From an uncultured delta proteobacterium (GTDB taxonomy: Bacteria > Desulfobacterota > Syntrophobacteria > BM002), in contig CAVQGX010000046.1 in assembly GCA_963712115.1 (NCBI GenBank), positions 64,001-128,000 of the forward strand: DNA of 64,000 nucleotides. Direction: 5' to 3'. The notes beneath the pieces were generated by a model. That model ran no database searches. It was given only the letters and a program-made list of their open reading frames with translations, and was not told where the DNA came from. Positions 1,675 through 60,493 of this stretch are shown here, piece by piece. Positions within the stretch are counted from its first letter, which is position 1. Each line of letters opens with the position of its first letter. The position numbers and the translations under genes are program-made.

Positions 1675-1802
1675 AGGTGTTCAGGTGTCAGATAATGCCC
1701 TCATGTTTGCTCTCCTGGCACCTGACACCCGAAACCAGACACCTTATTGATTGGAATTTGCGCCATGCGCTATGCTCTACCTGTCCTGAGCCTGTCGAAG
1801 GG
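1675..1802. repeat. Inverted tandem heptamer arms (AGGTGTC / TGACACC family), a CTATGCG half-arm and a REP-like CCTGAGCCTGTCGAAGGG motif
   Basis: aggtgttcaggtgtcaga (1675-1692) vs ctggcacctgacacccgaaaccagacacc (1715-1743); starts 3 nt after the stop codon. Confidence 0.75.
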
Positions 1803-1842
1803 CAGATGATGCCTTGCTGGTGGATCAGGGCACCATCGTTAT

Positions 1843-1871
1843 TTGACATAAAGCCCTGGCGTTTCTATAAT
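1843..1871 (+). promoter_or_regulatory. sigma70-type promoter
   Basis: Perfect TTGACA-N17-TATAAT, 50 nt upstream of the ATG at 1922, which has an AAGGAG RBS. Confidence 0.8.
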
Positions 1872-1921
1872 CTGCAGCCAATCTCTTAATGGCTATCACT
1901 AAAAAATAAGGAGACCAATCC

Positions 1922-2788
1922 ATGGGCAACAGGATAGGGTTATCTGCCTTCGTCGTTATCTTGACACTTCTGGTAAGTGGAGGGATATCAAATCTTTCGG
2001 CCCAGTCAACCACTTGGGCGGAAAATCCTTTACTCGACTGGGAAAGAGACAATCTCCAGGCCTTCGACAGAAACAATTACGACAAAGTTATCGACATGGC
2101 GCAAAACCAAGCAAATGATCCCAACGGCAATGCTTTTCTCTTCATCTACTATGGCCATGCCCAGAAATACTATTTGGAGCGCAACCGAACGTCTGCCGTT
2201 TACTACAAGCAACAATATCACATGACCCTAAATCGACTTTCAGGGGCCAATCTGGCCGTGCTGACAAGATTAATTGCCATGCCCCAGACGTCCTGGAATA
2301 AGAAAATTAACAATCAGTTTTTGGATGCAGCATTCGAAAAAGCAGCCACCATGGAGTATCTGGGTGCCGTCCTTTTCTATCTAGAGAGCCCGAATCCGGA
2401 TGTGGCCAAAGGTGCAATTGGAGGTCTGAAGGCCATTTTACAGGAGAAGCGTAACATAGTCATGAACGGCGGCACTCTGAGCAGTTCTGACCGGGCCTGG
2501 ATGAGCGACAACCGCCTGTTGCAGCTGCTGGTCAAAAAGGCAGGTGAAACCTCCAGCCCTGCTACCGGTTTCATCTCGAAGATTCCAGCCTTTGCCCGTC
2601 AAAAGGTACTGGGCGGTGCCCCTGCTTGCTTAGCCCTAATTGAAGACCCGGCTTTGCCCATGTTGCGCCAGGCTGCCACCATGGGTAATGCCAGCGCAGC
2701 TGCTGTAATCCAATTAATTCAAGATGCCAGGGGCGCCCGTCTTGCCAAGTACGCCAATAGTACCTGGTACAGCGCCACAGGCCCCTAG
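1922..2788 (+). CDS. Exported all-alpha hypothetical protein (possible HEAT/TPR-like repeats)
   Basis: 288 aa ORF, AAGGAG RBS, signal peptide, consensus promoter; no recognisable family. Confidence 0.75.
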   Translation: MGNRIGLSAFVVILTLLVSGGISNLSAQSTTWAENPLLDWERDNLQAFDRNNYDKVIDMAQNQANDPNGNAFLFIYYGHAQKYYLERNRTSAVYYKQQYHMTLNRLSGANLAVLTRLIAMPQTSWNKKINNQFLDAAFEKAATMEYLGAVLFYLESPNPDVAKGAIGGLKAILQEKRNIVMNGGTLSSSDRAWMSDNRLLQLLVKKAGETSSPATGFISKIPAFARQKVLGGAPACLALIEDPALPMLRQAATMGNASAAAVIQLIQDARGARLAKYANSTWYSATGP

Positions 2789-3143
2789 CCTGGATGAACC
2801 TTTTTCCTTGTGGATTTGCCGTCTACAATGGTGAGTATCTTGTGAGGCCAGGATGAGCTTATAACCCAGAAGAGACAGCAGAAGATCATTTTCATTGCTA
2901 AATCACCCACAACTTTGCAATGGGCTGAATCCGCAGCTACAAGGCAAACATTTTTGGGGAAACTCCTGGTTAGATAATACTTTTCATCTTTAGATGAAAA
3001 TGTTATAAATATATTTCAACAATTTGTTGTAATAATTAATTGATTTCGGTCTGATCTGAATTGTCCTCTCGGCAGGGATTGCACCGCAAGAATTCTATTG
3101 CCTTGGATAACAATCAGACCCAGATGAGGAGGCAGGGGAATTA

Positions 3144-3338
3144 ATGCCTACGCCCGCTAAGGAATTACAGAAAGAGCTCAGATACGGTAACGTAACTGCC
3201 CATAGATACTTTGACTGCCCCCACTACCAGAAGTGCCTAGAGGAGGCGGTGAAGAAGTACTGGGTGAGCTTTTCATGCCGCAATTGCCCAGAATTTAAAG
3301 AGTATAAAAAAACACAAGGCGCCACAAAGGTGCGCTAG
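3144..3338 (+). CDS. Small Cys-rich hypothetical protein (C-x5-C ... C-x2-C, putative metal binding)
   Basis: GAGGAGG/GGGGA upstream; HRYFDCPHYQKCL..W.SFSCRNC pattern. Confidence 0.7.
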   Translation: MPTPAKELQKELRYGNVTAHRYFDCPHYQKCLEEAVKKYWVSFSCRNCPEFKEYKKTQGATKVR

Positions 3339-3639
3339 TAATGGGCCCTCGCCCCCGGACGCGTTTTAGCCGGGGCTAACGACTCTCCGTTCGAAGACTA
3401 TATCTCCACAACCAAACTAGCCCTCCGAGGAATTAGAGGGGATAATTGACGTGAGATGGCAGATGATGACAAAGACTGTCAGAAATCGCAACCAAACCTT
3501 TCTAGTTAGCTTTGTGAGCCGGCATTTGTAGCAGAAAACAAAAATATTCTATAAGTATGTGCCATTTCAAGCATTATCATTGTGACCCAAGAGATTATCA
3601 TGGGTAATTTAAACGCTTTGGTGCAGTCTTTAGGGCTAT

Positions 3640-3655
3640 TGGCACTGATATTGCT
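3640..3655 (+). promoter_or_regulatory. sigma54 (-24/-12) promoter of pilin gene
   Basis: TGGCAC-TGATA-TTGCT matches TGGCAC-N5-TTGCW; pilin genes are typically RpoN/PilR driven. Confidence 0.8.
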
Positions 3656-3772
3656 AGATCACCATGATTGAAAGACCGGTGGATAGGTCTTTTGCCCTGG
3701 TTCCATATAGGTCGGGCGTATACTATAGGACACCGAAACCGAATGATTTTGTTCCAGCAGGAGGAAACGGAT

Positions 3773-5706: not shown

Positions 5707-5768
5707 CTAGACTTGAAATGTGTACCCTGAGATGTTAAAGGCAGGTTGTACGAAGACGGAAAAGACTT

Positions 5769-12011: not shown

Positions 12012-12407
12012 GTGCTCGCTGCGCTCCGCTCAGCTCCCTGCCAGATCTCCTTCGGAGATGTCCGTTGTCCGTCGTTCAAGTCGATCTATCATCCGGCTTC
12101 GCCGGATTCGTTCAAACCGTTGAAATCGTTAAAGTCGTTTGAATCGTTCAAATCGTAAAGGCTCAAGGAGCCAGTAGCAAGAATGAAAGAACACTCTTTA
12201 TGTTTTTGCCTCCTGGATTCTGAATTCTGACTCCTGGATTCTTTTTCAACGTCGCCTGATGACTCCTCTGGGTATTACCAAATCCGCAATTCGAAATTCT
12301 GTCCTCTGACCTCCGACTTCTGACCTCTGATCTCTCTCTTCCCCATGCTCTATGCTCTATGCCTCTTACGCGACGGACCACTGACTCCTTGGTGCCTAGT
12401 GCCTAGT
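12012..12407. repeat. Dense stack of several 7-9 nt tandem-repeat arms and small hairpins
   Basis: (TCGTTCAAA)n, (CTCCTGG/ATTCTGA)n, (TGACCTC)n, (CTCTATG)n, (GTGCCTA)n; hairpins atccggcttcgccggat and ctccttcggag. Confidence 0.75.
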
Positions 12408-18768: not shown

Positions 18769-18827
18769 ACATTACTCCAGTACTCCACTACTCCATTACT
18801 CCAGTTCCTTGCTGCCTGCTGCCTTCT
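18769..18827. repeat. Orphan right arms (ATTACTCC)x4 and (TGCTGCC)x2
   Basis: attactccagtactccactactccattactcc; directly after the stop of the OYE gene. Confidence 0.75.
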
Positions 18828-19981: not shown

Positions 19982-20191
19982 AACCACAGAGTGCACGGCG
20001 CCAATTCATCAAATAGTCGATTAGTCAGATCGTCAAGTCGTTCAATGGTTAACTGGTCAAGTAGGCTATTTCTCACCATTTGACGAATAAACGAATTGAC
20101 GATTTAACTTAATTACACCTGTCTGCTATCAGCTACCAGCTGAATATTCGTTATGCTCTATGCGCTTTGCCTCGATTGTGCTCTTGGTGGT
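19982..20191. repeat. Nested inverted repeat arms (ACCACAGAG..GTGGT outer; 8-mer TAGTC/GACGA inner) plus half-arms
   Basis: aaccacagagtgcac ... ttgtgctcttggtggt enclosing aatagtcgattagtc.. / ..tgacgaataaacgaattgacgatt, gctatcagctaccagc, tatgctctatgcgc. Confidence 0.65.
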
Positions 20192-20211
20192 GCAAGCTAT
20201 CGCACAGCCAT

Positions 20212-27478: not shown

Positions 27479-27552
27479 CGCATAGCGCAGAGCGCCAAGC
27501 GCATAGCGGTAATCCATTTTAGGTTTTACGCTCCGCGCTATGCCCTTTGCGT
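27479..27552. repeat. Inverted heptamer arms (GCATAGC / GCTATGC family)
   Basis: cgcatagcgcagagcgccaagcgcatagcgg ... acgctccgcgctatgccctttgcg. Confidence 0.8.
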
Positions 27553-28345: not shown

Positions 28346-28477
28346 TGTGGTCAGTTGTAGTTTCACTTCGTTCACCTTTTGGAGCGTGGTGCTTGGCGCA
28401 TGGAGTTTTCGTTTTAGCCCTATGCTCCATGCCCCATGCTCTATGCTCTATGCCGTTTACACAACAGACAACTGACC
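28346..28477. repeat. Two-level nested inverted arms (GGTCAGTTGT/ACAACTGACC outside, GCATGG/CTATGC inside)
   Basis: Perfect 10 bp outer complement; inner (gctctat)n array. Confidence 0.8.
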
Positions 28478-31669: not shown

Positions 31670-31893
31670 CTCACCACAGAGACTCACGGGAGAAAAATCC
31701 GAAATCCGAATATCTAAATCCGAAACAAACTCGAATTTCCGAAATCCAAATGACCAAAACACCGGACCTGTCTCTTTGGGTAGTCATGTTTTGAACATTT
31801 GAGCATTCGGATTTTAGATTTGTTTCGTGCTTCGGATTTAGGATTTAGGATTTTGAGTGTACACCCCCTATGTAATCTCTGTGTTTTCTCCGT
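31670..31893. repeat. Nested element: ACCACAGAG-type outer arms around ~67 bp AAATCCG / CGGATTT inverted arms
   Basis: Left 31694-31760, right 31788-31854; same architecture as 58984-59210. Confidence 0.85.
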
Positions 31894-35051: not shown

Positions 35052-35183
35052 AACCACAAAGAGCACGAAGGTATCTAATTGCAGATTGCAGAATCTCCCA
35101 GTTCCAACTTTTGTCAATCTAGAATCTCAGATGCCAAATCTACAATCTCAAATCTAAAATCTCCTTTTGTGTCCTTCGTGGTG
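35052..35183. repeat. Two-level nested arms (ACCACAAAG / CTTCGTGGT outside, ATTGCAG / AATCT inside)
   Basis: aaccacaaagagcacgaag [..] tttgtgtccttcgtggt enclosing aattgcagattgcagaat / aatctagaatctc..aaatctacaatctcaaatct. Confidence 0.8.
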
Positions 35184-36558: not shown

Positions 36559-38604
36559 ATGGCCAAAATAGTCACTCAGTTTTATCCGCGCTTCTATGAG
36601 TCCAGAGTGGGTAAGATTGCGCTGCTTACCATGGACAACGGAGAAGATTACAAGAAACCAACCACTTTTGACGAGGAGGCACTAAATTCTCTAAACAAGG
36701 CCCTGGACTTCATTCAGAGGGAACCTGATGTCAAAGGTCTTTTACTCACGGGAAAGCTGTACATTTTCGCCGCCGGCGCCGATCTTACCCAGATACCTTT
36801 CATCAATACTTTTGAGCAGGGAAAAGCAATTGGACAGTTTGGCCATGCAACCTTCAAGAGAATAATGGAAGTGCCTTACCCCACAGTGGCAGCGATAAAC
36901 GGTGCTGCCCTCGGCGGTGGGTTGGAGATATCACTTTACTGCGATTACCGAACAATTTCCAAGGGTGTCACTGCCATAGCCTTCCCCGAGTGTTTTTTGG
37001 GTCTCATTCCTGGCTGGGGTGGTTCCACTTTGGCACCCCGGTTGATTGGCCCAGAGAAGGCGCTGGAACTGATCATCTATAATCCCCTTAACCAAAATCG
37101 CATGATCAAAGGGTTCCAGGCTTTCGAGATGGGGCTGGCAGACCGCTTATTTGATACTGCTGAGTTCCTGGACGATTCTATTCGTTTTCTGGAAGGGATC
37201 ATAGATGGCAGCGAGAAGGTTGAGCCTAAACCGGCTGACTCCAGCAATCTAAAATCGCTCCTGGGAAAAGCCCGTAGTTTTGTGGACAGCAAGGTTCATG
37301 GTGCCGCCATTGCTCCTTATAGAGCCCTGGAATTGATCGAGGGCGCATTCAGCTGGGACGTAGATCAGGGATTCGCCGAGGAAGATAAAGCCCTAGGCGA
37401 CCTCATCAAAAGCCGCCAATGTAAGGCCAGTGTATATTCCTTTGATTTGGTTCAGCGACGGGCCAAGCGTCCTGCAGGAGTTCCAAAAGTAGAGCCCCTG
37501 AAAGTTGCCAAAATCGGGATCATCGGGGCGGGTCTCATGGCCTCCCAACTGGCCCTTTTATTCCTCCGACGCTACGAGATACCTGTGGTGATGAAAGACA
37601 TCAAGCAGGAATTTGTTGACAAGGGCATTGGATACATCCGGGCGGAACTGGATAAACTGGTGGAAAAAGGAAGGTTGCTCGAGGCCAAAGCACGCTACCT
37701 TTTCACCCTGGTGAAGGGTACTCTCGATTGGACCGATTTTGCCGACTGTGACTTCGTCATCGAGGCGGTTTTTGAGCAGATGCAGGTAAAACAGCAGGTA
37801 TTTGCCGAGGCCGAGGAGGTAGTCTCATCTAATTGCATCCTTGCCACCAACACCTCTAGCCTTTCTATAACAGCCATGGCCTCGAAGCTCAGACATCCTG
37901 AGAGGGTGGTAGGACTTCACTTTTTCAACCCTGTTGCAGTGCTGCCGCTGGTAGAGATAATCCCCGGAGGCAAAACAAACGACGTCACTCTTGCCACCAC
38001 TTTCTCCGTTGCCAAGCAACTGAGGAAGACTGCAATACGAGTGAAGGATTCTGCTGGATTTCTGGTCAATCGCATTCTGACCAAAATGCTGGTGGACTGT
38101 CTCGATATGGTTGATGAGGGAGCTGATTTTCAATTTGTTGATGAGGTCGCGCTCAGCCTGGGGTTGCCCATGGCACCTTTTGAACTGTTGGGGTTTGTCG
38201 GACCGGCCGTAGCAGCTCATGTGCAACAGACCTTGAACCGCGCTTTCGGACCTCAACGCTTTCCCATTAACGAGAATTTGAAGCGAATGGTTGACGCTAA
38301 TATCCCGGGGATCTATGTGGGTGAGCCTCCAAACCTTAGATTAAATCCGGCACTAAAGGATTTATGGCAGAAAAAGGGAGAAAAGGATTTCCGCAAAGAG
38401 GAGATCATCGAGCGTGTCCTTACCAGCCTTACCCGCGAGATTGATCTCATCCTGGAGGAGAAAGTCGTGGGAGACACCAGGGACGTGGATTTAGCCATGA
38501 TCATGGGCGCGGGCTGGCCATTCTTCATGGGTGGGGTAACCATGTACCTTGATTTGGCGGGGTATACACCCAAGGTGTTGCAGAAGGTGTTCTTTACTTT
38601 CTAG
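36559..38604 (+). CDS. fadB: Multifunctional enoyl-CoA hydratase / 3-hydroxyacyl-CoA dehydrogenase
   Basis: FAAGADL, GGGLE, PECFLG; GAGLMA, IEAVFE, TNTSSLS, HFFNP. Confidence 0.9.
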   Translation: MAKIVTQFYPRFYESRVGKIALLTMDNGEDYKKPTTFDEEALNSLNKALDFIQREPDVKGLLLTGKLYIFAAGADLTQIPFINTFEQGKAIGQFGHATFKRIMEVPYPTVAAINGAALGGGLEISLYCDYRTISKGVTAIAFPECFLGLIPGWGGSTLAPRLIGPEKALELIIYNPLNQNRMIKGFQAFEMGLADRLFDTAEFLDDSIRFLEGIIDGSEKVEPKPADSSNLKSLLGKARSFVDSKVHGAAIAPYRALELIEGAFSWDVDQGFAEEDKALGDLIKSRQCKASVYSFDLVQRRAKRPAGVPKVEPLKVAKIGIIGAGLMASQLALLFLRRYEIPVVMKDIKQEFVDKGIGYIRAELDKLVEKGRLLEAKARYLFTLVKGTLDWTDFADCDFVIEAVFEQMQVKQQVFAEAEEVVSSNCILATNTSSLSITAMASKLRHPERVVGLHFFNPVAVLPLVEIIPGGKTNDVTLATTFSVAKQLRKTAIRVKDSAGFLVNRILTKMLVDCLDMVDEGADFQFVDEVALSLGLPMAPFELLGFVGPAVAAHVQQTLNRAFGPQRFPINENLKRMVDANIPGIYVGEPPNLRLNPALKDLWQKKGEKDFRKEEIIERVLTSLTREIDLILEEKVVGDTRDVDLAMIMGAGWPFFMGGVTMYLDLAGYTPKVLQKVFFTF

Positions 38605-38638
38605 AGGGACTGCCTCGTACACAAACGCGGGGTCCTGC

Positions 38639-38900
38639 CACTAGGCACTAGGAACTATGCACTAAGCACTACAACTCAGAACGAGGAATTGGTAACTCTT
38701 AATATTAAATTCGAACTTTCAAGCACACAAAAAATCCCGAGCAACAGATTTGGGATGTGTTCTATGTGATGTGAGATTCAACATTTCTCTCTGGATTTCG
38801 TATCCCAGATCTCACATCCATCTTGGGGTTGTCTCAGATTTTTCTGCGAGTTCCGCTTTCTTGCCCTTGGTGCCTAGTGCTTACTCCCTAGTGCCTAGTA
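38639..38900. repeat. Three-level nested inverted arms
   Basis: (CACTAGG)n [aaaaatcccgagcaac [gatgtgagat .. atctcacatc] gttgtctcagattttt] (GTGCCTA)n. Confidence 0.75.
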
Positions 38901-39112
38901 GAAATCCCTGCCTGCTGCGGGCTGTCTAGCATCCTCTCCACAAATAATCGTTGAAAATCCATCGGCTATATGCTAAAAATCTCACATTTATTCTCTGGGT
39001 ATCCCCATTAGTTGAAAAAGAACGGATTCCATGTTAGAAGTCCGAGGTGCGGCTTTCGTGTTACACTAGCTTTATCTCTATTAAATCAGCATTTTAAGCG
39101 GATAAGGGGAGG

Positions 39113-40291
39113 ATGGCGATGAAAAAGAGTTGGATTCTTATTGTCCCATGTTTGGTGATTGGCTTGGTATTTTCACCTTCAGCCTGGTGCAAGTCCGATA
39201 CCATCAAGATCGGTATCAACGCCCCCATGACTGGTGATATCCCCAAAGTGGGAGAAGGCACAAAGTTCGCAGCCCAAATGTGGCTCGAAGACATCAATAA
39301 AGCCGGGGGGCTTCAAGTTGGAAAGAAAAAGTACAAGGTAGAATTGGTCATTGAAGACAACGAGTCCAAGGCTGAGTCTGCGGTAAAAGCTGCTACCAAA
39401 ATGATTGTCGAGGACGAAGTTCTGGCTATTGTCGGGCCTCAGTCCTCCAAGCAGGCGGTACCTGCAGGCTCTGTGGCCAACGCCTACAAAACACCGATGA
39501 TTAGCCCGTGGTCAACAAATCCGGATACTACCAAAGGTCGTCCTTTTGTTTTCCGTGGCTGCTTCCTCGATCCCTTTCAAGGGCCGGTTTTGGCCAATTT
39601 CATCACCCAGGAGTTCCTGTTCACTAAAGCCGCGGTTTTGTATGACGTGGCAAGTGACTACCCCAAGGGATTGGCCGAGTTCTTTAGAGAGGCCTGGGAA
39701 AAGCTCCATGGCCCGGGCTCTGTGGTGGCCTATGAAAGTTTCACCACCAAAGACACCGACTTCAGTTCCCAGTTGACCAAGATCATTCGCTCAGGAGCCG
39801 AAGTACTGTTCACCCCCCAGTATTACAATGAGGTGGCTTTGATCGTGCAGCAGGCCCATGAACTGGGGTGGAACAAACCCATCGTGGGCAGCGACAGCTG
39901 GGGTTCGGCCGAGACGGTCACCCTCTGCGGCAAAGACTGTTACGGCCTCTTCTTCAGCACCCATTATGCTGCCGCCGGTGCTACAGGGGCCACCAAGGCT
40001 TTCATCGATCGTTACAACAAGACCTACGGCTACGTGCCTGACGATGTTGGCGCCTTGACCTGGGACTCAATTCGCATTGTTCAAAGGGCCATTGAGAATT
40101 GTGGAGAGATTACCGGCAAGATTGAGAAGGACCGCCAGTGTGTTCGTGACGCCCTGGCCAAGATCAGGGAATTCGACGGCATTACCGGCAAGATGACCTT
40201 CACCGAAGAGGGCGACCCACTTAAGTGTGCCGTTGTTGTTAGGATAAGCGATAAGGGGGAGTTCGAATTTTACAAATCTGTCTGCCCGTAG
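39113..40291 (+). CDS. livK: Branched-chain amino acid ABC transporter substrate-binding protein
   Basis: IKIG..APMTG, IN.AGG, ISPWSTNP, FR.CFLD.FQG, DFSSQLTKI. Confidence 0.85.
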   Translation: MAMKKSWILIVPCLVIGLVFSPSAWCKSDTIKIGINAPMTGDIPKVGEGTKFAAQMWLEDINKAGGLQVGKKKYKVELVIEDNESKAESAVKAATKMIVEDEVLAIVGPQSSKQAVPAGSVANAYKTPMISPWSTNPDTTKGRPFVFRGCFLDPFQGPVLANFITQEFLFTKAAVLYDVASDYPKGLAEFFREAWEKLHGPGSVVAYESFTTKDTDFSSQLTKIIRSGAEVLFTPQYYNEVALIVQQAHELGWNKPIVGSDSWGSAETVTLCGKDCYGLFFSTHYAAAGATGATKAFIDRYNKTYGYVPDDVGALTWDSIRIVQRAIENCGEITGKIEKDRQCVRDALAKIREFDGITGKMTFTEEGDPLKCAVVVRISDKGEFEFYKSVCP

Positions 40292-40351
40292 ACTGGAGTC
40301 CGAGCTTAGCCTAGTGGGCACTAACTCCGGTGATTAAAATTAGATTGAAGT

Positions 40352-40390
40352 AAGCGGGCCAGGGCTAAGAGCCCTGGCCTCGTTTTCTTT
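40352..40390 (+). terminator. Rho-independent terminator / stabilising hairpin after livK
   Basis: GGCCAGGGCT-AAG-AGCCCTGGCC followed by TCGTTTTCTTT. Confidence 0.8.
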
Positions 40391-40578
40391 AAAGATCAAG
40401 GGAACATTTCACGCCTCTCCTCGCCTTTTCCTTGTTGAATCAGATAGTACGTTTGACAGGGTAGGCCCTTTTACCCCACGTCGCAGACAGTGAGCTGTAG
40501 CAGCCGCTTGGGCCCCGGAATGCTGAGGGAATAGGGTTTCGGGGGGATGTGGGATGTTTCAAACAAGGAGCGCATGCG

Positions 40579-41502
40579 GTGACATTTTTCCTGCAAAACC
40601 TAGTCAACGCTCTTCAATGGGGTAGTTTCTACGCCTTGATCGCCCTGGGTTACTCCATGGTTTATGGCGTCCTGATGCTCTTTAATTTTGCCCATGGCGA
40701 TATTTTTATGGTGGGAGCGTACATAGGTTTCGGGGTTGCAACCGGGCTAGTGGCCCTGGCCTCCATGGGAGCCCTTGCCATACCCCATTGGTTGATTCTG
40801 GTATTGACCATCCTCATTTCCATGTTTTTGACTTCCTTCGTGGGCATGATTGTGGAGCGGGTGGGCTATAGGCCCCTGCGAGATGCCCCTAGGGCCTCCG
40901 CTGCAATTACCGGCTTGATGATCGGCATCATATTGGAGACCGGAAACCTGGCCCTTCTGGGCGCCCAACGGATAAGTTTTCCTACCTTGGTCAAGTCAAC
41001 CACTTACAACCTGGGTGGGGTGTTCGTCACCAATAAGAAGATCATGATCGTTGTTGTCTCCATTGCCCTCATGTATGCTCTTCATCTGTTCGTCCGCAAG
41101 ACCCGGTGGGGAATGGCCATGCGCGCCATGGCCTTTGACTTTGTTGTTGTTCCCCTCCTGGGAGTGCCCATAAACAACATTGCCCGCCTGACGTTTGCCA
41201 TCGGTTCGGCGCTGGCAGCCGTGGCAGGAATACTCTTTGGTGTGGCCTATCCTGTCCTCGACCCTTACATGGGGATTATCTTCGGCTGGAAGGCCTTTGT
41301 GGCTGCCATTCTGGGAGGTAGGGGCTCCATTCTCGGGGCTTGCTTGGCCGGCTTTCTCCTCGGATTCATTGAGATCTTTGTAGCCATGATCTTCCCGTCC
41401 ACTTTAAGGGATTTCATCGCTTATTCTATAATTCTGCTGATTTTGGCCTTCAGGCCCCATGGCTTTTTCGGAGAGCCCTACAGTGCCCGCCTGAGGTTGT
41501 AA
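40579..41502 (+). CDS. livH: Branched-chain amino acid ABC permease
   Basis: GS.YALIALGYSMVYG...NFAHG, KAFVAAILGG; AAGGAG RBS before GTG. Confidence 0.9.
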   Translation: MTFFLQNLVNALQWGSFYALIALGYSMVYGVLMLFNFAHGDIFMVGAYIGFGVATGLVALASMGALAIPHWLILVLTILISMFLTSFVGMIVERVGYRPLRDAPRASAAITGLMIGIILETGNLALLGAQRISFPTLVKSTTYNLGGVFVTNKKIMIVVVSIALMYALHLFVRKTRWGMAMRAMAFDFVVVPLLGVPINNIARLTFAIGSALAAVAGILFGVAYPVLDPYMGIIFGWKAFVAAILGGRGSILGACLAGFLLGFIEIFVAMIFPSTLRDFIAYSIILLILAFRPHGFFGEPYSARLRL

Positions 41503-41550
41503 TATAGAACCTGTATCAAAATGGGGATGTAACTACGGAATAACTAGGAA

Positions 41551-42849
41551 GTGGTTGTGAAAATAAACAACTCCCTTTCGCCTGGAAACAAGACGCTCGC
41601 AAACCGCATCCGGGATTCCTTTGCCCAGGCTCCCCTGTTGGCCTGGCTATGTGGCATTCTGGGTGCCGTCTTGCTTGAACGCTTTCTGGGAGACCCGCTC
41701 ACGGAACTCTTGGGCCTGCCTAAAATCCCCGCCCTTTTTGGCGCCGTAACTATTCTCAAGAAACCTCAGCTTATTCCCGGCACCGTCGCCTTTCTGTTCC
41801 TAATATATGTAGTACCCGTAATTGTCGTCCCGAGGCTGTTTGGTTCAATGCTGAATAGGTTAGTGGGCTGGCTTTTCCATCTGTCCCCAACTGTTTCTGT
41901 GGCTATCCACCTCGGCCTGTTATACGGAATCTTAAGTTTGTGGGCTGACATAAGCGGTTACCGGCTTCTCACCCTTAAACTCACTTTAATTGCGGTCATC
42001 GTCACCTTGAGCCTCAACGTGATCAATGGTTATATGGGAGAGTTCTCATGTTCCCACCCAGGGTTTCTCGCCCTGGGCGCCTACACTGCCTCGATCTTCA
42101 CCCTCCTTTTCTTTGTTGACGACAAAGTGTTCGGAGCTGCACTTCTCCCTGAGTTCCTAGGCCCCTTCTTGTTTCCTCTCGCATTGATCTTGGGCGGAGT
42201 CGTCGCTGCCATCGGTGCCATTGCTATTGCTATCCCGTCTTTCAGGACAAGGGGTGACTATCTGGCAATCATCTCCCTGGCTTTTATGTTTATCGTCAAA
42301 AGTGTGATTGAGAACCTGGAATTCGTTCGAGGGCCCCGTGGCTTGGGCAGCCAACCAAATTATGTCGATCTGCCTACGGTGTTCATTTGGACCGTGGCCG
42401 CCGTGTGGATTATCAACAATTTTGTTCGCTCCACCACAGGAAAGGCCCTCAATGCGGTTAGGGACGACGAAATGGCGGCCGATGCCATGACCGTCAACAC
42501 CAGACGCACCAAAATAGTGGCCTTCCTTTTCGCCGCCTTTTGGGCCGGTGTTGCAGGTGGGCTGTTTGCTCACGTGCTGAGGTATGTCAATCCAGGAACT
42601 TTCGGTATCCAGAAACTCGCTGAAGTCTTGGCCATGGTCTATTTTGGAGGACTCAATTCCGTCTACGGTTCCATTGTCGGCGCTGTGAGCTTGAGCCTTC
42701 TCGGTGAGGCTTTGCGGCCATTGGAAATATTCAAATGGATCATCATTCCGCTCCTATTGATACTAGTTATGATTTTCAGGCCCACTGGCTTGATTGCTTT
42801 TAAAGACTTCGATGTGATGAAGCTGATTAGACCGAAGGGAATGAGTTAA
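41551..42849 (+). CDS. livM: Branched-chain amino acid ABC permease
   Basis: SLNVINGY.G, R.RGDYLAI, G.AL.AVRDDE.AA; exact start uncertain. Confidence 0.9.
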   Translation: MVVKINNSLSPGNKTLANRIRDSFAQAPLLAWLCGILGAVLLERFLGDPLTELLGLPKIPALFGAVTILKKPQLIPGTVAFLFLIYVVPVIVVPRLFGSMLNRLVGWLFHLSPTVSVAIHLGLLYGILSLWADISGYRLLTLKLTLIAVIVTLSLNVINGYMGEFSCSHPGFLALGAYTASIFTLLFFVDDKVFGAALLPEFLGPFLFPLALILGGVVAAIGAIAIAIPSFRTRGDYLAIISLAFMFIVKSVIENLEFVRGPRGLGSQPNYVDLPTVFIWTVAAVWIINNFVRSTTGKALNAVRDDEMAADAMTVNTRRTKIVAFLFAAFWAGVAGGLFAHVLRYVNPGTFGIQKLAEVLAMVYFGGLNSVYGSIVGAVSLSLLGEALRPLEIFKWIIIPLLLILVMIFRPTGLIAFKDFDVMKLIRPKGMS

Positions 42850-42851
42850 TA

Positions 42852-42955
42852 AATGGAGTATTGGAGTGTTGGAGTAATGGAGTGTTGGAAGAATTTCAGA
42901 TCTCGAGAAATTTTTTATCTCATTACTCCAGTACTCCACTACTCCATCACTCCAG
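42852..42955. repeat. Inverted octamer arms (TGGAGTAA / TTACTCCA family) inside the liv operon
   Basis: aatggagtattggagtgttggagtaatggagtgttgg ... cattactccagtactccactactccatcactccag. Confidence 0.9.
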
Positions 42956-43039
42956 TGCTGTCGTGGTCGGCTGAAAGACAAACCCGTCAAACCTCCTCTT
43001 TCGGAGATACGGAGACGTAGGGTAGAGACTGGATACAAC

Positions 43040-43810
43040 ATGCCATTGCTGCAGATTAATAATATGAGCCACGATTTCGGCGGGCTAAGGGCTGTAAATA
43101 ACTACAACCTTGAGGTCGAACCCGGCCAAATCAGGGGACTGATCGGGCCTAATGGCGCGGGTAAGACCACCATCTTCAATCTCATAAGTGGCATCTACCG
43201 GCCAACCGAGGGCGATATCCTGCTGAATGGCAAATCCCTCGTCGGTCTCAAACCTTATCAGATCGCCGCCATGGGTCTCGGCAGGACTTTTCAGAACCTC
43301 CGTCTGTGGCGACACATGACTGTCCTCGATCATGTAAAAATGGCCCGTTACTCAAAAATAAAATACGGACTGCTTGGAGCCTTTTTCGGCACACCAAAAC
43401 GGAGAAGAGAAGAAGCAGAGATAGAAGAGAAAGCATACAGTCTGTTAAAACTGGTGGGTGTGGCTGATCTCGCAGATCAGGTAATTCTCAATCTCCCCTA
43501 TGGGGCCCAGCGAAGGGTGGAGATGGCCAGAGCTCTCGCCACAGAGCCAAAGATATTGTTTCTTGATGAGCCTACTGCGGGAATGAATCCTGAAGAACTC
43601 AAGCAGATGATGGAAATTATCCGGCGAATCCACAGGGAATTGGGACTGGCGATCTTTCTCATCGAACACCGGCTAAAAGTGGTCATGGAACTCTGTGAGA
43701 TCATTCAGACCCTGGTTTTCGGTGAGGTCATCGCCGAGGGTTCTTCTGAGGAGATCCAAAACGATCCTAAGGTGATAGAAGCCTATTTGGGCAAGGAGAC
43801 GATTCTCTGA
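43040..43810 (+). CDS. livG: BCAA ABC transporter ATP-binding protein
   Basis: GPNGAGKTT, RTFQN, LPYG.QRRVE, LDEP.AG, V.EAYLG. Confidence 0.95.
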   Translation: MPLLQINNMSHDFGGLRAVNNYNLEVEPGQIRGLIGPNGAGKTTIFNLISGIYRPTEGDILLNGKSLVGLKPYQIAAMGLGRTFQNLRLWRHMTVLDHVKMARYSKIKYGLLGAFFGTPKRRREEAEIEEKAYSLLKLVGVADLADQVILNLPYGAQRRVEMARALATEPKILFLDEPTAGMNPEELKQMMEIIRRIHRELGLAIFLIEHRLKVVMELCEIIQTLVFGEVIAEGSSEEIQNDPKVIEAYLGKETIL

Positions 43811-44526
43811 TGTTGGTGGTGGAAAACCTGAGGGTCTCCTATGGCAGGATTCGGGCCCTCCACGGCATAAACTTCAATGTTGATGAGGGCGAAATAGTAT
43901 GTATTATCGGCGCCAATGGTGCCGGAAAGAGCACCACCTTGCGCGCCATCTCCAGGATGATCCCTGTTGAACCGGGTACCAGGATGAGCTACAAGAACGA
44001 AGACCTGCTCAAATATCCCGCCGATAGGGTGGTTAGTAAGCTTGGCATATCCCACGTCCCCGAAGGAAGGCGCATTCTTGACAACTTGACGGTCATGGAA
44101 AACCTGAAACTTGCCACCTACGCCAGAAAAGACGGCACTGGCAAAATCGGGGAAGATCTGGAGAAGCTATTTTCCATTTTCCCCCGGCTTGAAGAGAGGC
44201 GAAACCAAAAGGGCGGAACCTTGAGTGGTGGTGAGCAGCAGATGCTGGCAATCGGCAGAGCTTTCATGAGTGGAAGGAATGTGATGTTGCTCGACGAACC
44301 CTCCATGGGTCTGGCGCCTTTGCTGATGTTGCATATGTTCGAAGCTCTCCAGGAGATAAACAGGGAGGGTGGGACCACCATTCTTCTGGTTGAGCAGAAT
44401 GCCCGACTGGCACTTCAGTTTGCCCAGAGAGGGTACGTGCTGGAGCACGGGAATATGGTGCTTGAAGGCAGATCTGAGGAGCTTCTTGACGACCCGGAAG
44501 TAAAGAAAGCCTATTTAGGAGGTTAG
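43810..44526 (+). CDS. livF: BCAA ABC transporter ATP-binding protein
   Basis: GANGAGKST, VPEGRR, LSGGEQQMLA, LDEPS.GLAP, VEQNA. Confidence 0.95.
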   Translation: MLVVENLRVSYGRIRALHGINFNVDEGEIVCIIGANGAGKSTTLRAISRMIPVEPGTRMSYKNEDLLKYPADRVVSKLGISHVPEGRRILDNLTVMENLKLATYARKDGTGKIGEDLEKLFSIFPRLEERRNQKGGTLSGGEQQMLAIGRAFMSGRNVMLLDEPSMGLAPLLMLHMFEALQEINREGGTTILLVEQNARLALQFAQRGYVLEHGNMVLEGRSEELLDDPEVKKAYLGG

Positions 44527-44603
44527 CCGGTCTAGCCGGTTATGCCTGTCAAATTGGCTAACTGGCCAAACCTGCTAAACAGGCTAAACCGATTGACCAG
44601 TTT
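44523..44603. repeat. 9-mer tandem arms overlapping the livF stop (same family as 36458)
   Basis: ttagccggtctagccggttatgcctgtc .. aactggccaaacctgctaaacaggctaaaccg. Confidence 0.7.
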
Positions 44604-46751: not shown

Positions 46752-46822
46752 CAGCTAACAGCGGACAGCAGACAGCTAGCAGTTTCCTTTTATCTGCAGC
46801 CGGCTGCATGCTGCCTGCTGAC
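46752..46822. repeat. Inverted heptamer arms (GCAGACA / CTGCCTG family)
   Basis: cagctaacagcggacagcagacagctagcag .. ctgcagccggctgcatgctgcctgctgac. Confidence 0.7.
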
Positions 46823-47851: not shown

Positions 47852-47894
47852 TGAGTCTCCTTTCCATTGTCATCAAACCGTGAAGAAAGAATTC

Positions 47895-48010
47895 AACCAC
47901 AAAGGTCACAAAGAACACAAAGAGGGTTCTTTAGTGAATATGATAATCACTCGATCTCTTAACTGAGGCTACTATTATTTTCTTTGTGCTCTTCGTGTCC
48001 TTCGTGGTGA
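47895..48010. repeat. Inverted 9-mer arms (ACACAAAGA / CTTTGTG family)
   Basis: aaccacaaaggtcacaaagaacacaaag ... ctttgtgctcttcgtgtccttcgtggtga. Confidence 0.85.
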
Positions 48011-48026
48011 ACTCTCGACTGGTATG

Positions 48027-49738: not shown

Positions 49739-49745
49739 GCTGACT

Positions 49746-52362: not shown

Positions 52363-52522
52363 AAGTGTCCATCCGGAAACACAATAATCTCCTCCCCCTT
52401 GACGGGGGAGGATTGAGGTGGGGGTGATGAAATAATAAGTATTTTGACCTTGTATTGTTTCCCCCTCCCCTTTATCCCCTCCCGCCAGGGGAGGGGAAAT
52501 GGAGCTCTCCGGATGGGCTCTA
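52363..52522. mobile_element. MITE-like element family C carrying two inverted REP-like hairpins
   Basis: TIR agtgtccatccggaaa / tctccggatgggctct; hairpins ctcccccttgacgggggag and cccctcccgccaggggagggg. Confidence 0.75.
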
Positions 52523-52597
52523 ATGAGTGTTCATCTGGAGTTTGAGAATGTCATTGCTGACAGACCAATGCTGAGAGATGAACGCTGGAATATAAGT

Positions 52598-54019
52598 ATG
52601 GTTGAGTTAAAAAAAGGAACTGAAATCGAACTGGTGGTGGAAAACCTTTCCTTCGGCGGCAAAGGTTTGGCTCGAGTTGATGGCTTCGTCGTCTTTATCG
52701 ATCGCACCATCCCCGGTCAGCGAGTCCTGGTTCGAATTACTCGCAAGAAACCTTCTTATGCTGAGGCCAGGGTACTAGAGGTATTAGAAGATTCACCTCA
52801 GGCCATTACTCCACGGTGCAGCCACTTTGGAACTTGCGGCGGTTGTCTGTGGCAAAACCTTCCTTACGAAGAACAACTCAAGGTTAAAAGAAATCTCGTC
52901 TGGGAGTGTCTGGACCACATTGGTGGGCTTTCCCATGATGTGGTCCTGCCAACCCTCCCCTCTCCACAAATCTTCTACTATCGCAATAAGATGGAATTCT
53001 CCTTTGCGCCCCGCCGCTGGTTATTGCCAGAGGAAATAGATCTCGACCAGTTGGCAAAACCTCGCAATTTCGCTCTCGGCCTGCATGTTAAGGGGTTCTA
53101 TAACCGGGTGTTGGATATTGAGGAATGCCACCTGCAAAGTCCCTTAAGTGTAGCCATTCTTAAACGGGTGCGGCAGTTTGCCTTAACCTCAGGGCTTCCA
53201 CCTTACAATACCCTCGACCACACGGGTTTTTGGCGTTTTCTGGTAGTGCGAGACAGCAAGCACACCGGACAAATACTGGTAGAGCTTATCACCGCATCTA
53301 ACCGCAGCGGCTCCACAGAGATAGAACAGCTTTCCTCGGTGCTCCTGGCCGAGATCCCTGAAATAACTACCTTAGTGCATAGTGTTAGCGCTAAGAAAGC
53401 ACAAATAGCTAGTGCAGATACCCGTAAAGTAATCTTGGGCCCGGGTTATATTGAAGAGAGGCTCGGTGACTTCCAGTTTCGCATTTCCTCAGGAGCCTTT
53501 TTCCAGACCAATAGCCAAGCAAGCAAGATCCTTCTGGATCAGGTATTAGCAGGCTGCGCTCTCACCGGTTCTGAAGTTGTTTGGGATCTCTACTGTGGTA
53601 CCGGGACTATGGCCATTGGGGTGGCAAATGGAGCCCGAAATGTTATCGGCTTTGAACTAATTGAGGAAGCCTTGGCTGATGCCAGGACCAATGCCAGATT
53701 AAATGGCGTTGATAACTGCGGTTTCGTTCTTGGTGATTTGAAGGGTTTATTTGCCGACCTATCTTCTCTCATTGAGCGGTACGGTAGTCCAGACGTAGTA
53801 GTGACTGATCCACCCAGAGCAGGCATGCACCCTTCTGTGGTAAAACAGCTTGCGGCCCTGGCCCCGCCAAAAATTGTCTCTGTTTCTTGTAACCCTGCCA
53901 CTTTAGCCCGGGATTTAAAAATGCTCATGGAGAAATATCGCCTCATCCGGGTGCAGCCCGTGGATATGTTTCCCCACACCCCCCATATCGAAGCGGTGGC
54001 TGTTTTAGAGAAGAGGTAG
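52598..54019 (+). CDS. rlmD: 23S rRNA (uracil-1939-C5)-methyltransferase
   Basis: TRAM domain, C.HFG.CGGC..Q, YRNKMEF, FFQTN, DLYCG.G, DPPRAG, SCNPATLARD, DMFPHT.H.E. Confidence 0.9.
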   Translation: MVELKKGTEIELVVENLSFGGKGLARVDGFVVFIDRTIPGQRVLVRITRKKPSYAEARVLEVLEDSPQAITPRCSHFGTCGGCLWQNLPYEEQLKVKRNLVWECLDHIGGLSHDVVLPTLPSPQIFYYRNKMEFSFAPRRWLLPEEIDLDQLAKPRNFALGLHVKGFYNRVLDIEECHLQSPLSVAILKRVRQFALTSGLPPYNTLDHTGFWRFLVVRDSKHTGQILVELITASNRSGSTEIEQLSSVLLAEIPEITTLVHSVSAKKAQIASADTRKVILGPGYIEERLGDFQFRISSGAFFQTNSQASKILLDQVLAGCALTGSEVVWDLYCGTGTMAIGVANGARNVIGFELIEEALADARTNARLNGVDNCGFVLGDLKGLFADLSSLIERYGSPDVVVTDPPRAGMHPSVVKQLAALAPPKIVSVSCNPATLARDLKMLMEKYRLIRVQPVDMFPHTPHIEAVAVLEKR

Positions 54020-54048
54020 ATTGGCCTTTTGTATTGGGAAGACCTGTT

Positions 54049-54169
54049 AACTAGGAACACTAAGCACTAGGCACTGAGGAGAAAAATACTTGATTAATAT
54101 TAGCAAGTTGGAGTTATCTTGTTTGATCAGACAATCATATGCTATGCGCTAGGCGCTTTGCGCTTAGCG
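54049..54169. repeat. Facing half-arms (CACTAGG)n and (GCGCTAT)n between convergent genes
   Basis: aactaggaacactaagcactaggcact; atgctatgcgctaggcgctttgcgct. Confidence 0.65.
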
Positions 54170-54171
54170 GC

Positions 54172-58848: not shown

Positions 58849-58983
58849 AGGCAGGTTTTCTCCTTTAAAGTTTACACTAGACAACCTCCTTTGCTGGCGA
58901 CTTGTAGCACCTGCAGTCACCACTGTCAAGTCGTAGTGAGCCAGCAATTTTACAAAATTTACTATCAGAAGGTCGTCGGGAGG

Positions 58984-59210
58984 AAATTCGAAATCCTAAG
59001 CACTAAATCCTAAACAAATTCAAATGTCCAAAGCACAAAATCCCAAACGTTTTGAGAAAAGACGCATTGTGAACTTATTTATGAAATCATCAATGCGGTA
59101 CCCGAAATATTATCTCTTAAATATATTATTTTATACCTATTATGGTTTTGAACATTTGGTAATTCGGATTTCGCATTTGTTTCGGATTTAGGATTTAGAT
59201 ATTAGGATTT
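58984..59210. repeat. ~66 bp AAATCCT / AGGATTT inverted arms around an AT-rich spacer
   Basis: Arms align with those at 31694-31854; spacer ~95 nt and unrelated to the spacer there. Confidence 0.85.
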
Positions 59211-59330
59211 GAAGCCGAGATTGACGTGCAGGAGGGCTATCATATCCCATGGCCTGTTAACTTCCTGTTGAATTATCCTCGTTTTTGTTGTCTCATAGGG
59301 ACAATTTAAGCCCGGCTAGGGGAGGAGATC

Positions 59331-60389
59331 ATGAAAGACCTAATAAAGCTTTTGGAAGAATTCTCTTCCTGCCCCGGACCACCGGGGGGGGAAGAACCGG
59401 TAGCCAGTCTAATCAGAAAACATTTGAAGCCTCAGTGTCAGATTCAACGTGACGGCCTGGGCTCTCTCATCGCAGTTAAGGAAGGAACGAGGAAGCAGCC
59501 GCGCATTATGCTCACGGCCCACATGGACGAGGTGGGCTTCATGCTGCAGAATATCACCAAGGATGGTTACTTGCGGCTCCAGCCATTAGGTGGCTGGATC
59601 GCCAGCCACCTGCCTGGCCAGCGGCTATTTGTTCATGGGCGCAAAGGGTCAGTCGAGGGAATTGTAGCCTCCATACCCCCTCATTTCACCAAAGAGCAGA
59701 AAAGCGAGACAAAGGTTGAAGACCTGCTGCTCGATGTGGGTGCTGTTTCAAGAGAGCAGGTTGCCTCTTTGGGGTTACAACTGGGGGATCTCATAACACC
59801 GGTCAGCCACTTCGCTGTTTACAACAAGAAATTTCTTGCCAATAAGGCTTGGGATGATAGGGTCGGCTGCGCGGTGCTGGTGGCTGCCATGCAAAAGCTC
59901 AAGAAACATCCAAATACTGTGGTGGCCGCGGCAACTGTACAAGAGGAAGTGGGGTCTAGGGGTGCGGTAACTGCAGTTGAGGTGGCGAAACCGCAGGCGG
60001 CCATTGTGCTTGAAGGTCCACCGGCAGATGACCTCCCGGGAGTAGCCAAGGACAGTCCCCAGGGAGCTTTGGGCAAGGGCTGCCAGATCCGCCTCTACGA
60101 TCCTTCCATCATTATCCACCGTCGATTCTGGCAGTGGGTTACAGAACTCGCTCAAGCAAAAAAGATCGCTCACCAATTGGCTGTACGCCAGAGTGGAGCA
60201 ACGGACGCTCGTGCCATTCATCTGGCTCAGGGTGGCATTCCCACGGTAGTGCTCGGCGTCCCGGTCCGCCACGCCCACAGCCACAGCGGCTTAATTAATT
60301 TGCAGGATGTTCAAGCCACCCTGGATCTCACATTAGCGATTCTGGAGAAACTGGACAATAAAACCCTTAAATCCCTTTTGCCAGCGTAG
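59331..60389 (+). CDS. M42 family (TET) aminopeptidase
   Basis: AHMDEVG, KAWDDRVG, QEEVG.RGA, G.TDA, HAHS. Confidence 0.95.
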   Translation: MKDLIKLLEEFSSCPGPPGGEEPVASLIRKHLKPQCQIQRDGLGSLIAVKEGTRKQPRIMLTAHMDEVGFMLQNITKDGYLRLQPLGGWIASHLPGQRLFVHGRKGSVEGIVASIPPHFTKEQKSETKVEDLLLDVGAVSREQVASLGLQLGDLITPVSHFAVYNKKFLANKAWDDRVGCAVLVAAMQKLKKHPNTVVAAATVQEEVGSRGAVTAVEVAKPQAAIVLEGPPADDLPGVAKDSPQGALGKGCQIRLYDPSIIIHRRFWQWVTELAQAKKIAHQLAVRQSGATDARAIHLAQGGIPTVVLGVPVRHAHSHSGLINLQDVQATLDLTLAILEKLDNKTLKSLLPA

Positions 60390-60395
60390 TGGATC

Positions 60396-60493
60396 GACAC
60401 GGCGATACGGTGACCTGGCGACACGGAGATAACTTGACACTACAATGGCTTGTATTCAATCGCCGTATCTCCCCTTCTCCTTTTCCCCGCGTC
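60396..60493. repeat. Inverted octamer arms (GACACGGC / CGCCGTAT family)
   Basis: gacacggcgatacggtgacctggcgacacggagat ... atcgccgtatctccccttctccttttccccgcgtc. Confidence 0.75.

Follow-up and report, generated by a model that had tools for sequence, protein, structure and literature searches.

Polarized inverted tandem-repeat brackets in the intergenic DNA of an uncultured delta proteobacterium and the small genes enclosed by such arms

Tandem heptamers have been catalogued in bacteria since 1990, and the accounts consulted here still call their role unknown. What such repeats may represent is the question raised by a 64,000-nt stretch of DNA from an uncultured delta proteobacterium (contig CAVQGX010000046.1, positions 64,001 to 128,000; hereafter the window), whose intergenic gaps hold imperfect tandem arrays of 7- to 9-nt units. 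The original prediction described these arrays as brackets composed of a left arm, a spacer, and a right arm that is the reverse complement of the left one. In this work, we found that arms of this kind enclose two families of small genes, TIGR02436 (four-helix bundle) and TIGR04256 (GxxExxY), and that several hundred further brackets in the same genome contain no gene. The most plausible explanation, which we hold with moderate confidence, is that the brackets are the stems of selfish hairpin elements resembling the intervening sequences (IVS) of 23S rRNA, with many of the arms being gene-less.

Arms and the Genes They Enclose

According to the original prediction, similar arms flank TIGR02436 and TIGR04256 genes in related genomes, and this holds both in the source genome and phylum-wide. 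In the source genome (G000; 4.9 Mb in 70 contigs, 49% G+C, with the window at C46:64001-128000), 14 matches to TIGR02436 were found at 13 loci, all of which are enclosed by inverted tandem arms (element length 355-755 nt). The flanks of nine of these 13 loci have inverted-repeat scores of at least 38, compared with 12 of 1037 small genes, three of those 12 being four-helix-bundle genes. The arms belong to several unit families (GCATGGA, CAGAGGT, GCATAGA, GGTCATTA, GCGAGACGA, TAAAATGTC, and AAATCC...) and obey the polarity of their families. Protein-coding open reading frames (ORFs) are present on both sides of all 13 loci. For one filled cassette, the minimum-free-energy fold closes a stem of ~33 bp with the ORF in the loop (z -5.7). 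The four-helix-bundle arms are mostly 7- or 8-mers, and the TIGR02436 search of G000 gave only gene fragments beyond these 13 loci.

Across the phylum, for which the related genomes surveyed are not independent samples, TIGR02436 is present in 88 of 151 sampled genomes. Flank scores of at least 30 were obtained for 20 of 26 loci (from 26 other genomes of the phylum) and for none of 49 shifted controls. The arms at these loci are tandem 7- or 8-mers, and the left arm is G-rich in 20 of 22. The arrangement was also found in a genome of Bacteroidetes, which was reached via an unrelated locus: all seven full-length TIGR02436 copies have inverted tandem arms, 430-680 nt apart, with a C-rich left arm in two of the seven cassettes.

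The GxxExxY family is present in 50 of the 151 genomes, and 25 of 28 loci have flank scores of at least 30, compared with none of 53 shifted controls. These arms are mostly 9-mers that start with ACCRCARAG and end with CTYTGYGGT, which is the arm type of the window brackets (outer pairs where nested) at 19982, 31694, 35052, and 47895. Of the five copies in G000, three to four are flanked by arms and three have tight 9-mer arms. In Pfam, the TIGR02436 cargo was assigned to 23S_rRNA_IVP (PF05635; E 5e-23 to 4e-34 for the three proteins scanned) and GxxExxY, a PD-(D/E)XK nuclease family, to PDDEXK_3; a search of solved structures by sequence gave no match to the GxxExxY protein. Both are large, widespread families of unknown function. 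In co-directional gaps, the cassette gene has the orientation of both neighbors in eight of eight four-helix-bundle cases and four of five GxxExxY cases.

Two observations concern the surroundings of such genes. A 3.4-kb segment at C30:121488-124898 contains three four-helix-bundle cassettes, each with its own arm family, in alternation with two ordinary genes. Flank scores of 38-68 were also obtained at other small genes (C2:306-644, C1:33508-33846, C8:44988-45362, C65:3636-4022, C38:74178-74666, and C22:94554-94943), of which, by eye, one resembles a DUF559/Vsr-type endonuclease and two resemble PilZ-domain proteins. These may be further cargo types, or genes that merely lie between two gaps with the same array family.

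Arrays, Polarity, and Turnover of Brackets

The genome contains 2981 merged arrays of 7-9-nt units, and period 7 predominates in the genome-wide tandem-repeat listing (2115 rows, compared with 87 for period 6 and 213 for period 10). Based on a crude ORF model with 75% coverage, 2566 of the 2981 arrays lie outside gene calls and 416 were classed as genic. Related neighboring arrays at most 300 nt apart are inverted in 200 cases and direct in 10, with ~1.8% expected for each, and the excess of inverted pairs is limited to separations below ~750 nt. A local-alignment search within 300 nt identified an inverted partner for 664 arrays and a direct partner for 103, and collapsing these results gave 441 distinct brackets (medians: stem 25.5 bp and spacer 34 nt; 83% of stem positions paired). 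Most gene-less brackets have loops of 20-68 nt. Array length has a cliff, with 941 arrays of 4-5 units and 169 of 5-6 units (a five-fold drop after a plateau), which would not be expected from free slippage. Taken with the cassettes, these data show that both gene families lie inside mirrored tandem arms in two phyla and that gene-less arms, with the strict polarity documented below, fill a large share of the gaps.

The assembly has an estimated completeness of 94% and contamination of 6%. Contig ends overlap in two places with 99.2-99.5% identity (C70:13923-27355 with C43:123626-137071, and C35:1-9559 with C34:16332-25882), which is assembly redundancy or strain mixture and matches the contamination estimate. 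Since ~23 kb is duplicated in this way, the counts of arrays and brackets are slightly inflated. A composite transposon, which was considered for inverted ACCTCTG modules around gene blocks of 2-7 kb seen twice, was rejected because the "second copies" are these overlapping contig ends with 99% identity.

The expectation that each family keeps one polarity was borne out throughout the genome. In unit families with four or more paired arrays, the majority orientation was found for 490 arrays and the minority one for five, and only six of 146 stranded unit types were seen in both polarities. Because an inverted pair reads alike on both strands, this polarity belongs to the pair and not to the flanking genes. 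Within gaps, left-arm forms stand ahead of right-arm forms in 389 ordered pairs versus 58, including arrays classed as single. When co-directional gaps are read on the sense strand, 234 of 296 left-arm forms are near the stop codon and 173 of 270 right-arm forms are near the next start. The left arm is G-rich and C-poor in 282 brackets versus 86, and in 87 unit types versus 31.

Several of the largest families are dispersed modules in which the order of unit variants, the loops, and the flanks are conserved, and near-identical whole modules of some families occur at BLAST identities of ~80-100%. One composite module, consisting of (GCAGGCA)n, a CAGAGGT hairpin, TGATGGACGA, and (CTTCAACGA)n, has ~45 BLAST matches at ~80-96% identity, and 35 copies could be aligned over their length; of its 19 occurrences in co-directional gaps, 16 have the sense orientation. 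In other families, ACTAGGC among them, only the arms are common to the copies, and the spacers (13-246 nt) are unrelated. The families are copies, not independent inventions. Counting independent superfamilies by single linkage (at most one mismatch) was rejected, since 88 unit types percolate into one network and the number of independent families is not countable by this approach.

With regard to genes, as called by the crude ORF model, 17 brackets lie within coding regions and 414 are intergenic, namely 305 in co-directional, 67 in convergent, and 42 in divergent gaps. The background by count is 71.5% co-directional, 13.3% convergent, and 15.2% divergent gaps, the last making up 21% by length; brackets are thus depleted in divergent gaps by either measure. 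The predicted proximity to stop codons was confirmed in the co-directional gaps, where the upstream stop is no more than 15 nt ahead of 70 of the 305 brackets and the downstream start is within 15 nt of 24; overall, 182 are nearer to the stop and 121 nearer to the start. Stems are not followed by a U-tract (of 305 tails on each strand, 15 sense and 19 antisense tails have a T4 run), and a reading of the brackets as intrinsic (Rho-independent) terminators was rejected on this ground.

Comparison with 17 congeneric species genomes revealed turnover at orthologous gaps, for which we give three examples. Synteny around the gap after ORF 36559-38604 of the window is kept in 11 congeneric genomes, with the promoter-proximal half of the gap aligning and the stop-proximal half differing. 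In two genomes, the latter contains CACTAGG arms with different spacers; three have CACTAGG left-arm remnants together with other brackets, five have an 8-mer bracket of the GACGCGGA type, and the remaining one has a GCTGACA bracket. At the window gap 47852-48026, the four congeners that were read have other families, some of them nested; the gaps are 95-237 nt long, and no GxxExxY-filled allele was found in the 17 congeners. The third site, C18:8195-8660, provides the presence/absence polymorphism that had been proposed as a check. In G000 and G014, a four-helix-bundle gene lies between GCATGGA arms, while in G016 the flanks and the arm family are the same but the gene is missing: a 31-nt spacer separates a short left arm from a right-arm remnant. 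At the same site, G012 has a 9-mer bracket and G007 mixed arms, such that filled, empty, and replaced alleles are all represented. Much of the intergenic turnover among congeneric species is attributable to these elements at the orthologous gaps that were compared.

Two other dispersed repeats were encountered. One of ~230 nt (C18:9195-9422, outside the window) is present in very many copies (76-93% identity) in the majority of the 18 genomes searched from this genus, and it is missing at the orthologous G012 site, where the flanking matches are 2 nt apart instead of 227. The other is a 1406-nt repeat with seven copies at 99.6-99.8% identity (C35:17980-19385 and six other places), which is probably an insertion sequence.

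That the brackets are nestable, as had been claimed, is correct as far as recurrence goes. Using the 9-mer end motifs, 44 outer pairs were found (15 in reverse order as the control), of which 11 enclose a complete inner bracket. Nesting is not a rule: the fully detected bracket pairs are nested in six cases, crossing in six, serial in four, and otherwise arranged in seven. In one 360-nt gap, the order is A B C D E / B' C' X E', with polarity kept and mirror order not.

Known Elements and the Origin of the Brackets

Among known systems, the cassettes are closest to 23S rRNA IVS. In Coxiella (PMC4990558), this IVS has 428-444 nt, a 28-bp stem formed by terminal inverted repeats, and a loop whose ORF belongs to the four-helix-bundle family; RNase III excises it from the transcript, and it is considered a selfish element of sporadic occurrence that was gained by horizontal transfer. 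The cassettes resemble the IVS with an S23p ORF of Leptospira and Coxiella, as far as these are described there, in size (~430-550 versus 428-444 nt), in the closing stem (~28-34 bp), and in having a single four-helix-bundle ORF, assigned to PF05635, in the loop. Unlike IVS, which are insertions in helix 9, 25, or 45 of 23S rRNA, the 13 cassettes lie between protein-coding genes, their arms are tandem 7-9-mers, hundreds of arm pairs have no gene, and there is a second cargo family with the PD-(D/E)XK domain. Genes for 23S_rRNA_IVP wedged between cas genes were reported earlier (PMC3936711) and fit the same habit.

The short tandemly repeated repetitive sequences (STRR) of cyanobacteria and repetitive extragenic palindromic (REP) sequences had been named as the nearest classes. 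Like our arrays, STRR are tandem heptamers that occur abundantly between genes and comprise many unit types. The sources consulted (bioRxiv 2022.06.06.494920, PMC4679880) describe their function as unknown, and inverted pairing, fixed polarity, and enclosed genes distinguish our elements from STRR as described there. Since the host is not a cyanobacterium (no Photo_RC match, and dsrA above the family cut-off), STRR provide an analogy and not the class. REP sequences, and the REP doublets forming hairpins (REPIN) that are associated with REP-associated tyrosine transposases (RAYT), are likewise high-copy intergenic inverted doublets folding into hairpins and are thought to be non-autonomous mobile DNA (PMC3116915). 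We found no cognate Y1 transposase flanked by bracket arms, and the arms differ from REP in being tandem arrays of very many unit types. Intrastrand-triplex repeats (PMC4666352) represent a different motif class. Miniature inverted-repeat transposable elements (MITEs) are also short, gene-less, and dispersed, with terminal inverted repeats, and in this comparison the gene-less form would be the non-autonomous partner of the gene-bearing elements. The gene-bearing form with the same arms, unlike that of MITEs, encodes a 23S_rRNA_IVP or PDDEXK_3 protein and no recognized transposase, and no target-site duplication was seen at the one site compared. The small dispersed repeats (SDR) of Nostoc punctiforme reported by Elhai et al. 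in 2008 are said to be tiny, hairpin-forming, mobile intergenic repeats that are nested and associated with heptamers, which may bear on the novelty of the nesting. The arrangement found here is not described in the literature searched, which did not extend to that report, the original STRR papers, NCBIfam curator comments, or supplementary files.

If the brackets are stems of IVS-like selfish elements, a full element would have ~430-550 nt, with two imperfect inverted arms of ~25-35 bp, each of 3-5 tandem units, and a loop that carries one small gene, either a four-helix-bundle gene (arms mostly 7-/8-mers) or a GxxExxY gene (arms mostly 9-mers). The several hundred gene-less brackets per genome, with the same arm families over a short loop, would represent vacant sites or derivatives without cargo; it is equally possible that they are targets or resemble MITE derivatives. 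The elements would inhabit transcribed spacer DNA, often directly past a stop codon. Arm pairs may spread by copying as units, and we propose that the polarity of each family was fixed for this reason. Cargo may be gained or lost between conserved arms, perhaps through recombination via short dispersed arm homologies, and in the GxxExxY class perhaps through nuclease-driven homing; such gain or loss would be the cause of the filled and empty alleles. By analogy with 23S rRNA IVS, the arms in RNA would pair into a long duplex that RNase III can clip, and therefore the insert may do little harm inside operons. A G-rich first arm would avoid exposing C-rich, Rho-attracting RNA before the stem closes.

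The architecture of these elements, their gene association and polarity, the dispersal of whole modules, and the turnover and presence or absence of cargo at orthologous sites are shown by the data above. The following points weigh against the account given above. No mobilizing enzyme was identified for the bracket elements, and a target-site duplication was not seen at the sole filled/empty comparison dissected (C18:8195-8660); mobility is therefore based on distribution patterns only. About three quarters of the arrays have no detectable partner, and gene-less arrays exceed cassettes by more than 100:1 (2981 arrays and 18 genes), with the commonest family, ACTAGGC (144 arrays), having no cassette in G000. 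The four-helix-bundle paralogues of G000 are just 21-31% identical, and so there has been no recent multiplication of cassettes within this genome. Simple insertion into loops would not give rise to the six crossing arrangements (A B ... A' B'). Stem mismatches have no strand-specific excess of G:U (282 sense and 271 antisense), leaving no trace of RNA-level selection; selection on the RNA strand was rejected on account of this missing asymmetry of G:U against A:C. Finally, some hairpin was present in every orthologous gap inspected (11 of 11 after ORF 36559-38604 and five of five at 47852-48026), which also fits a need of the host for a hairpin at those junctions. Accordingly, the original statement that the arms are "ends of small mobile cassettes, now empty" stands in part: the arms do enclose cassette genes and modules are dispersed, while the emptied state and a transposition mechanism are hypothetical.

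The main rival explanation is favored by the last of these points. The brackets may be intercistronic hairpins selected by the host for 3'-end protection, processing, or termination, in a manner comparable to REP, with the small genes as secondary parasites of the loops; we consider this unlikely. A bracket directly past the same stop in all 11 congeneric genomes despite differing families (and again in five of five at 47852-48026), the enrichment near stops and depletion in divergent gaps, the sense bias of the asymmetric composite module (16/19), and the limit of ~5 units per arm are all consistent with it, as is the replacement of tetraloops of existing helices by 23S rRNA IVS, noted in PMC4990558, which fits a targeting of loops. 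The missing U-tracts and the missing strand excess of G:U argue against this, as do the 42 brackets in divergent gaps and 17 in genes. Moreover, selection on structure alone leaves unexplained why a family has a single polarity at hundreds of loci and why the arm period is linked to the enclosed gene family. Low-complexity DNA generated by slippage, in which heptamers grow in place and inverted pairs arise by chance or as hairpin-stabilized by-products, was the alternative set out in the original prediction, and we find it hardly credible. Among long simple repeats, those of heptamers are the most frequent in many bacteria (Mrazek 2007, summarized in PMC4679880), and both the unpartnered arrays and the mutational network of 88 unit types joined at no more than one mismatch would suit slippage. 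However, it does not account for the bias toward inverted neighbors (200 versus 10), the polarity (490 versus 5), the left-before-right order (389 versus 58, single arrays included), the unit-variant order conserved across 35 dispersed copies, the sharp drop in copy number at five units, or the specific association with two gene families across phyla. Non-random orientation, stop-codon enrichment, the two enclosed gene families, and the presence/absence polymorphism contradict it on the criteria set by the original prediction itself.

Two further explanations invoke particular enzymes. REPIN-type elements moved by a RAYT acting on single-stranded hairpins are suggested by the high-copy intergenic inverted doublets, which form hairpins as REPINs do (PMC3116915), and by the Y1 transposases encoded in the genome (four matches). 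This explanation appears highly improbable: inverted-repeat scores in the flanks of the three strong Y1_Tnp genes (23-25) do not exceed background, and it is difficult to see how a single sequence-specific enzyme, or a few of them, would serve more than 100 unit types. The one RAYT-like Y1 transposase ORF (171 aa, C20:238065-238633) is flanked by a pair of 26-nt, GTAG-headed palindromes that are 92% complementary and lack tandem periodicity, and it is a separate REP/RAYT system in the same genome. Alternatively, the arms may be products of de novo synthesis, in which both 3' ends at a break or insertion site are extended by repeated rounds of templated addition and then joined, with or without cargo. 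Polarity would then be a mechanical signature. The strand running 5' to 3' into the element is indeed G-rich and C-poor on both sides, as in the four-helix-bundle arms of other genomes (G exceeds C on the left in 20 of 22; left G 279, C 82; right G 86, C 277) and in the G000 brackets with a G-rich left arm (282 versus 86). End extension also agrees with the bounded number of units per arm and with the placement of left-arm and right-arm forms, which keep to their respective sides of gaps even where mirror order is absent. Four-helix-bundle proteins of the family are accessory factors of reverse transcriptase in diversity-generating retroelements, as stated in PMC10053308 and bioRxiv 2021.01.26.428298. 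Still, end extension is quite unlikely, given that no polymerase or template was identified, that the unit-variant order is kept in dispersed copies, as would be expected if finished arms are copied, that the left arm is C-rich in 31 of 146 unit types and two Bacteroidetes cassettes, and that GxxExxY arms are balanced in G and C (14 versus 9).

Under the favored explanation, a selfish hairpin cassette in transcribed spacers provides one testable frame for three puzzles, namely the heptamers and the two gene families. A more specific proposal, which we regard as possible but doubtful, is that each of the two small proteins serves to maintain or mobilize the arms around its own gene. Recognition of 4-5 heptamer units would fall to the four-helix-bundle protein, whose family is reported to be pentameric (PMC4990558), and cleavage or homing at 9-mer arms to the PD-(D/E)XK protein. 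If so, these would be a class of autonomous and non-autonomous mobile elements without a canonical transposase, and the STRR-type heptamers of cyanobacteria, Bacteroidetes, and sulfur bacteria would be the arms and relics of such elements. In practical terms, the elements probably break short-read assemblies and could mislead tools for detecting terminators or CRISPR arrays.

Features of the Window

Within the window, Tandem Repeats Finder reported 55 rows, which merged into 41 arrays of period 7-9 (Table 1). Seven of these arrays are within genes and the remainder are spread over 21 of 45 intergenic gaps; the phenomenon is as originally described, with a count lower than the ~25 array-bearing gaps that had been given. 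Direct reading confirmed, base by base, the predicted layout of left arm, spacer, and reverse-complement right arm at 1675, 27479, 28382, 19982, 35052, 47895, 31694, and 58984. A stricter automatic criterion calls just seven complete brackets, which indicates that several of those described earlier have degenerate arms. Six bracket stretches fold more stably than shuffles (z -2.6 to -8.2), and an Rfam scan of the window gave no family at the gathering score. At 19982, 31694, and 35052, an outer pair of the 9-mer type (ACCACARAG...GTGG) surrounds an inner inverted pair of shorter units, which are 7-mers at 31694 and 35052 and ~8-9 nt at 19982.

Table 1. Tandem arrays and brackets in the window (positions counted from the first letter of the window).
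Position	Strand	Feature	Units or arms	Context and remarks
1675..1746	.	Bracket	(GGTGTCA)n ... (TGACACC)n	4 nt past the stop of ORF 25-1671; sequence read; RNA fold -24.7 kcal/mol, z -4.0
12108..12407	.	Gap consisting almost entirely of arrays	TCGTTCAAA 9-mer, then 7-mers CTGAATT, TCTGACC, ATGCTCT, GTGCCTA	TCTGACC, ATGCTCT, and GTGCCTA are right-arm (C-rich) forms of families with known polarity
18773..18824	.	Single arrays	TACTCCAG 8-mer, TGCTGCC 7-mer	No partner above threshold
19982..20195	.	Nested set	Outer ACCACAGAG...CTCTTGGTGG around a AAATAGTC-type / TTGACGAA pair	Further right-arm arrays
27479..27543	.	Bracket	(CGCATAG)n, 20-nt spacer, (CGCTATG)n	Between co-directional genes; fold z -4.35
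28382..28454	.	Bracket	GCATGG-type left arm, 11-nt spacer, right arm (CCATGCN)5	
31685..31890	.	Nested brackets	Outer ACCACAGAG...CTCTGTG (9-mer type), inner (AAATCCG)n ... (CGGATTT)n	Inner spacer ~108 nt
35052..35182	.	Cleanly nested brackets	Outer ACCACAAAGAGCACGAAGG...CCTTCGTGGTG, inner (ATTGCAG)n ... (AATCTNC)n	C46:99053-99182; between two beta-oxidation genes
38639..38899	.	Bracket	(CACTAGG)4.7 ... (CCTAGTG)4.3	198-nt spacer with more arrays; 35 nt past the stop of ORF 36559-38604; other families in the orthologous gap of 10 sister genomes
42854..42956	.	8-mer bracket	(TGGAGTAT)4.5 ... (TACTCCAG)4.1	5 nt past a stop, in a branched-chain amino-acid ABC transporter operon; fold -48.7 kcal/mol, z -8.2
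44508..44589	.	9-mer bracket	TGTTTAGCC / GGCTAAACA	
46758..46820	.	Bracket	(ACAGCAG)n, 17 nt, (CTGCTGC)n	Convergent gap; fold z -3.3
47895..48008	.	9-mer bracket	ACCACAAAGGTCACAAAGAACACAAAG ... CTTTGTGCTCTTCGTGTCCTTCGTGGTG	Arm type found around GxxExxY genes elsewhere; fold z -5.05
54141..54164	.	Single array	GCTATGC	Between ORF 52499-54019 and the topoisomerase IV subunit B (parE-type) gene
58984..59210	.	Bracket	Complex arms of ~60 nt (AAATCC...AAACAAATTCAAATGTCCAAAGCAC / inverse)	Divergent gap; arm sequence recurs around the four-helix-bundle gene at C30:121488-121947

Genes in the window include those for beta-oxidation enzymes, both topoisomerase IV subunits, and type IV pilus assembly proteins. 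A search of genome contigs with topoisomerase IV subunit A gave matches of at most 59% identity over the best segment and at most 47% over the full length.

Public sequencing runs contain several items that touch the window. One contig of 262 nt from an RNA library spans the upstream ORF, the left arm, and the spacer of bracket 38639; DNA carry-over is possible and the contig provides no RNA ends, and we drew no conclusion from the public runs. Apparent "joints" in public runs, which have 5-31 other letters in place of the 198-nt spacer 38672-38870, were rejected as alleles. They are paralogous loci, because their sides are just 23-32 nt long and two of them match spacers of other genomic copies of the same family. 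DNA near-identical to window positions 36559-44526 was found in metagenome runs from estuary and marine sediment and in metatranscriptome libraries, and, in all four runs that match this segment (X1, X6, X15, and X16), contigs break at or near bracket arms.

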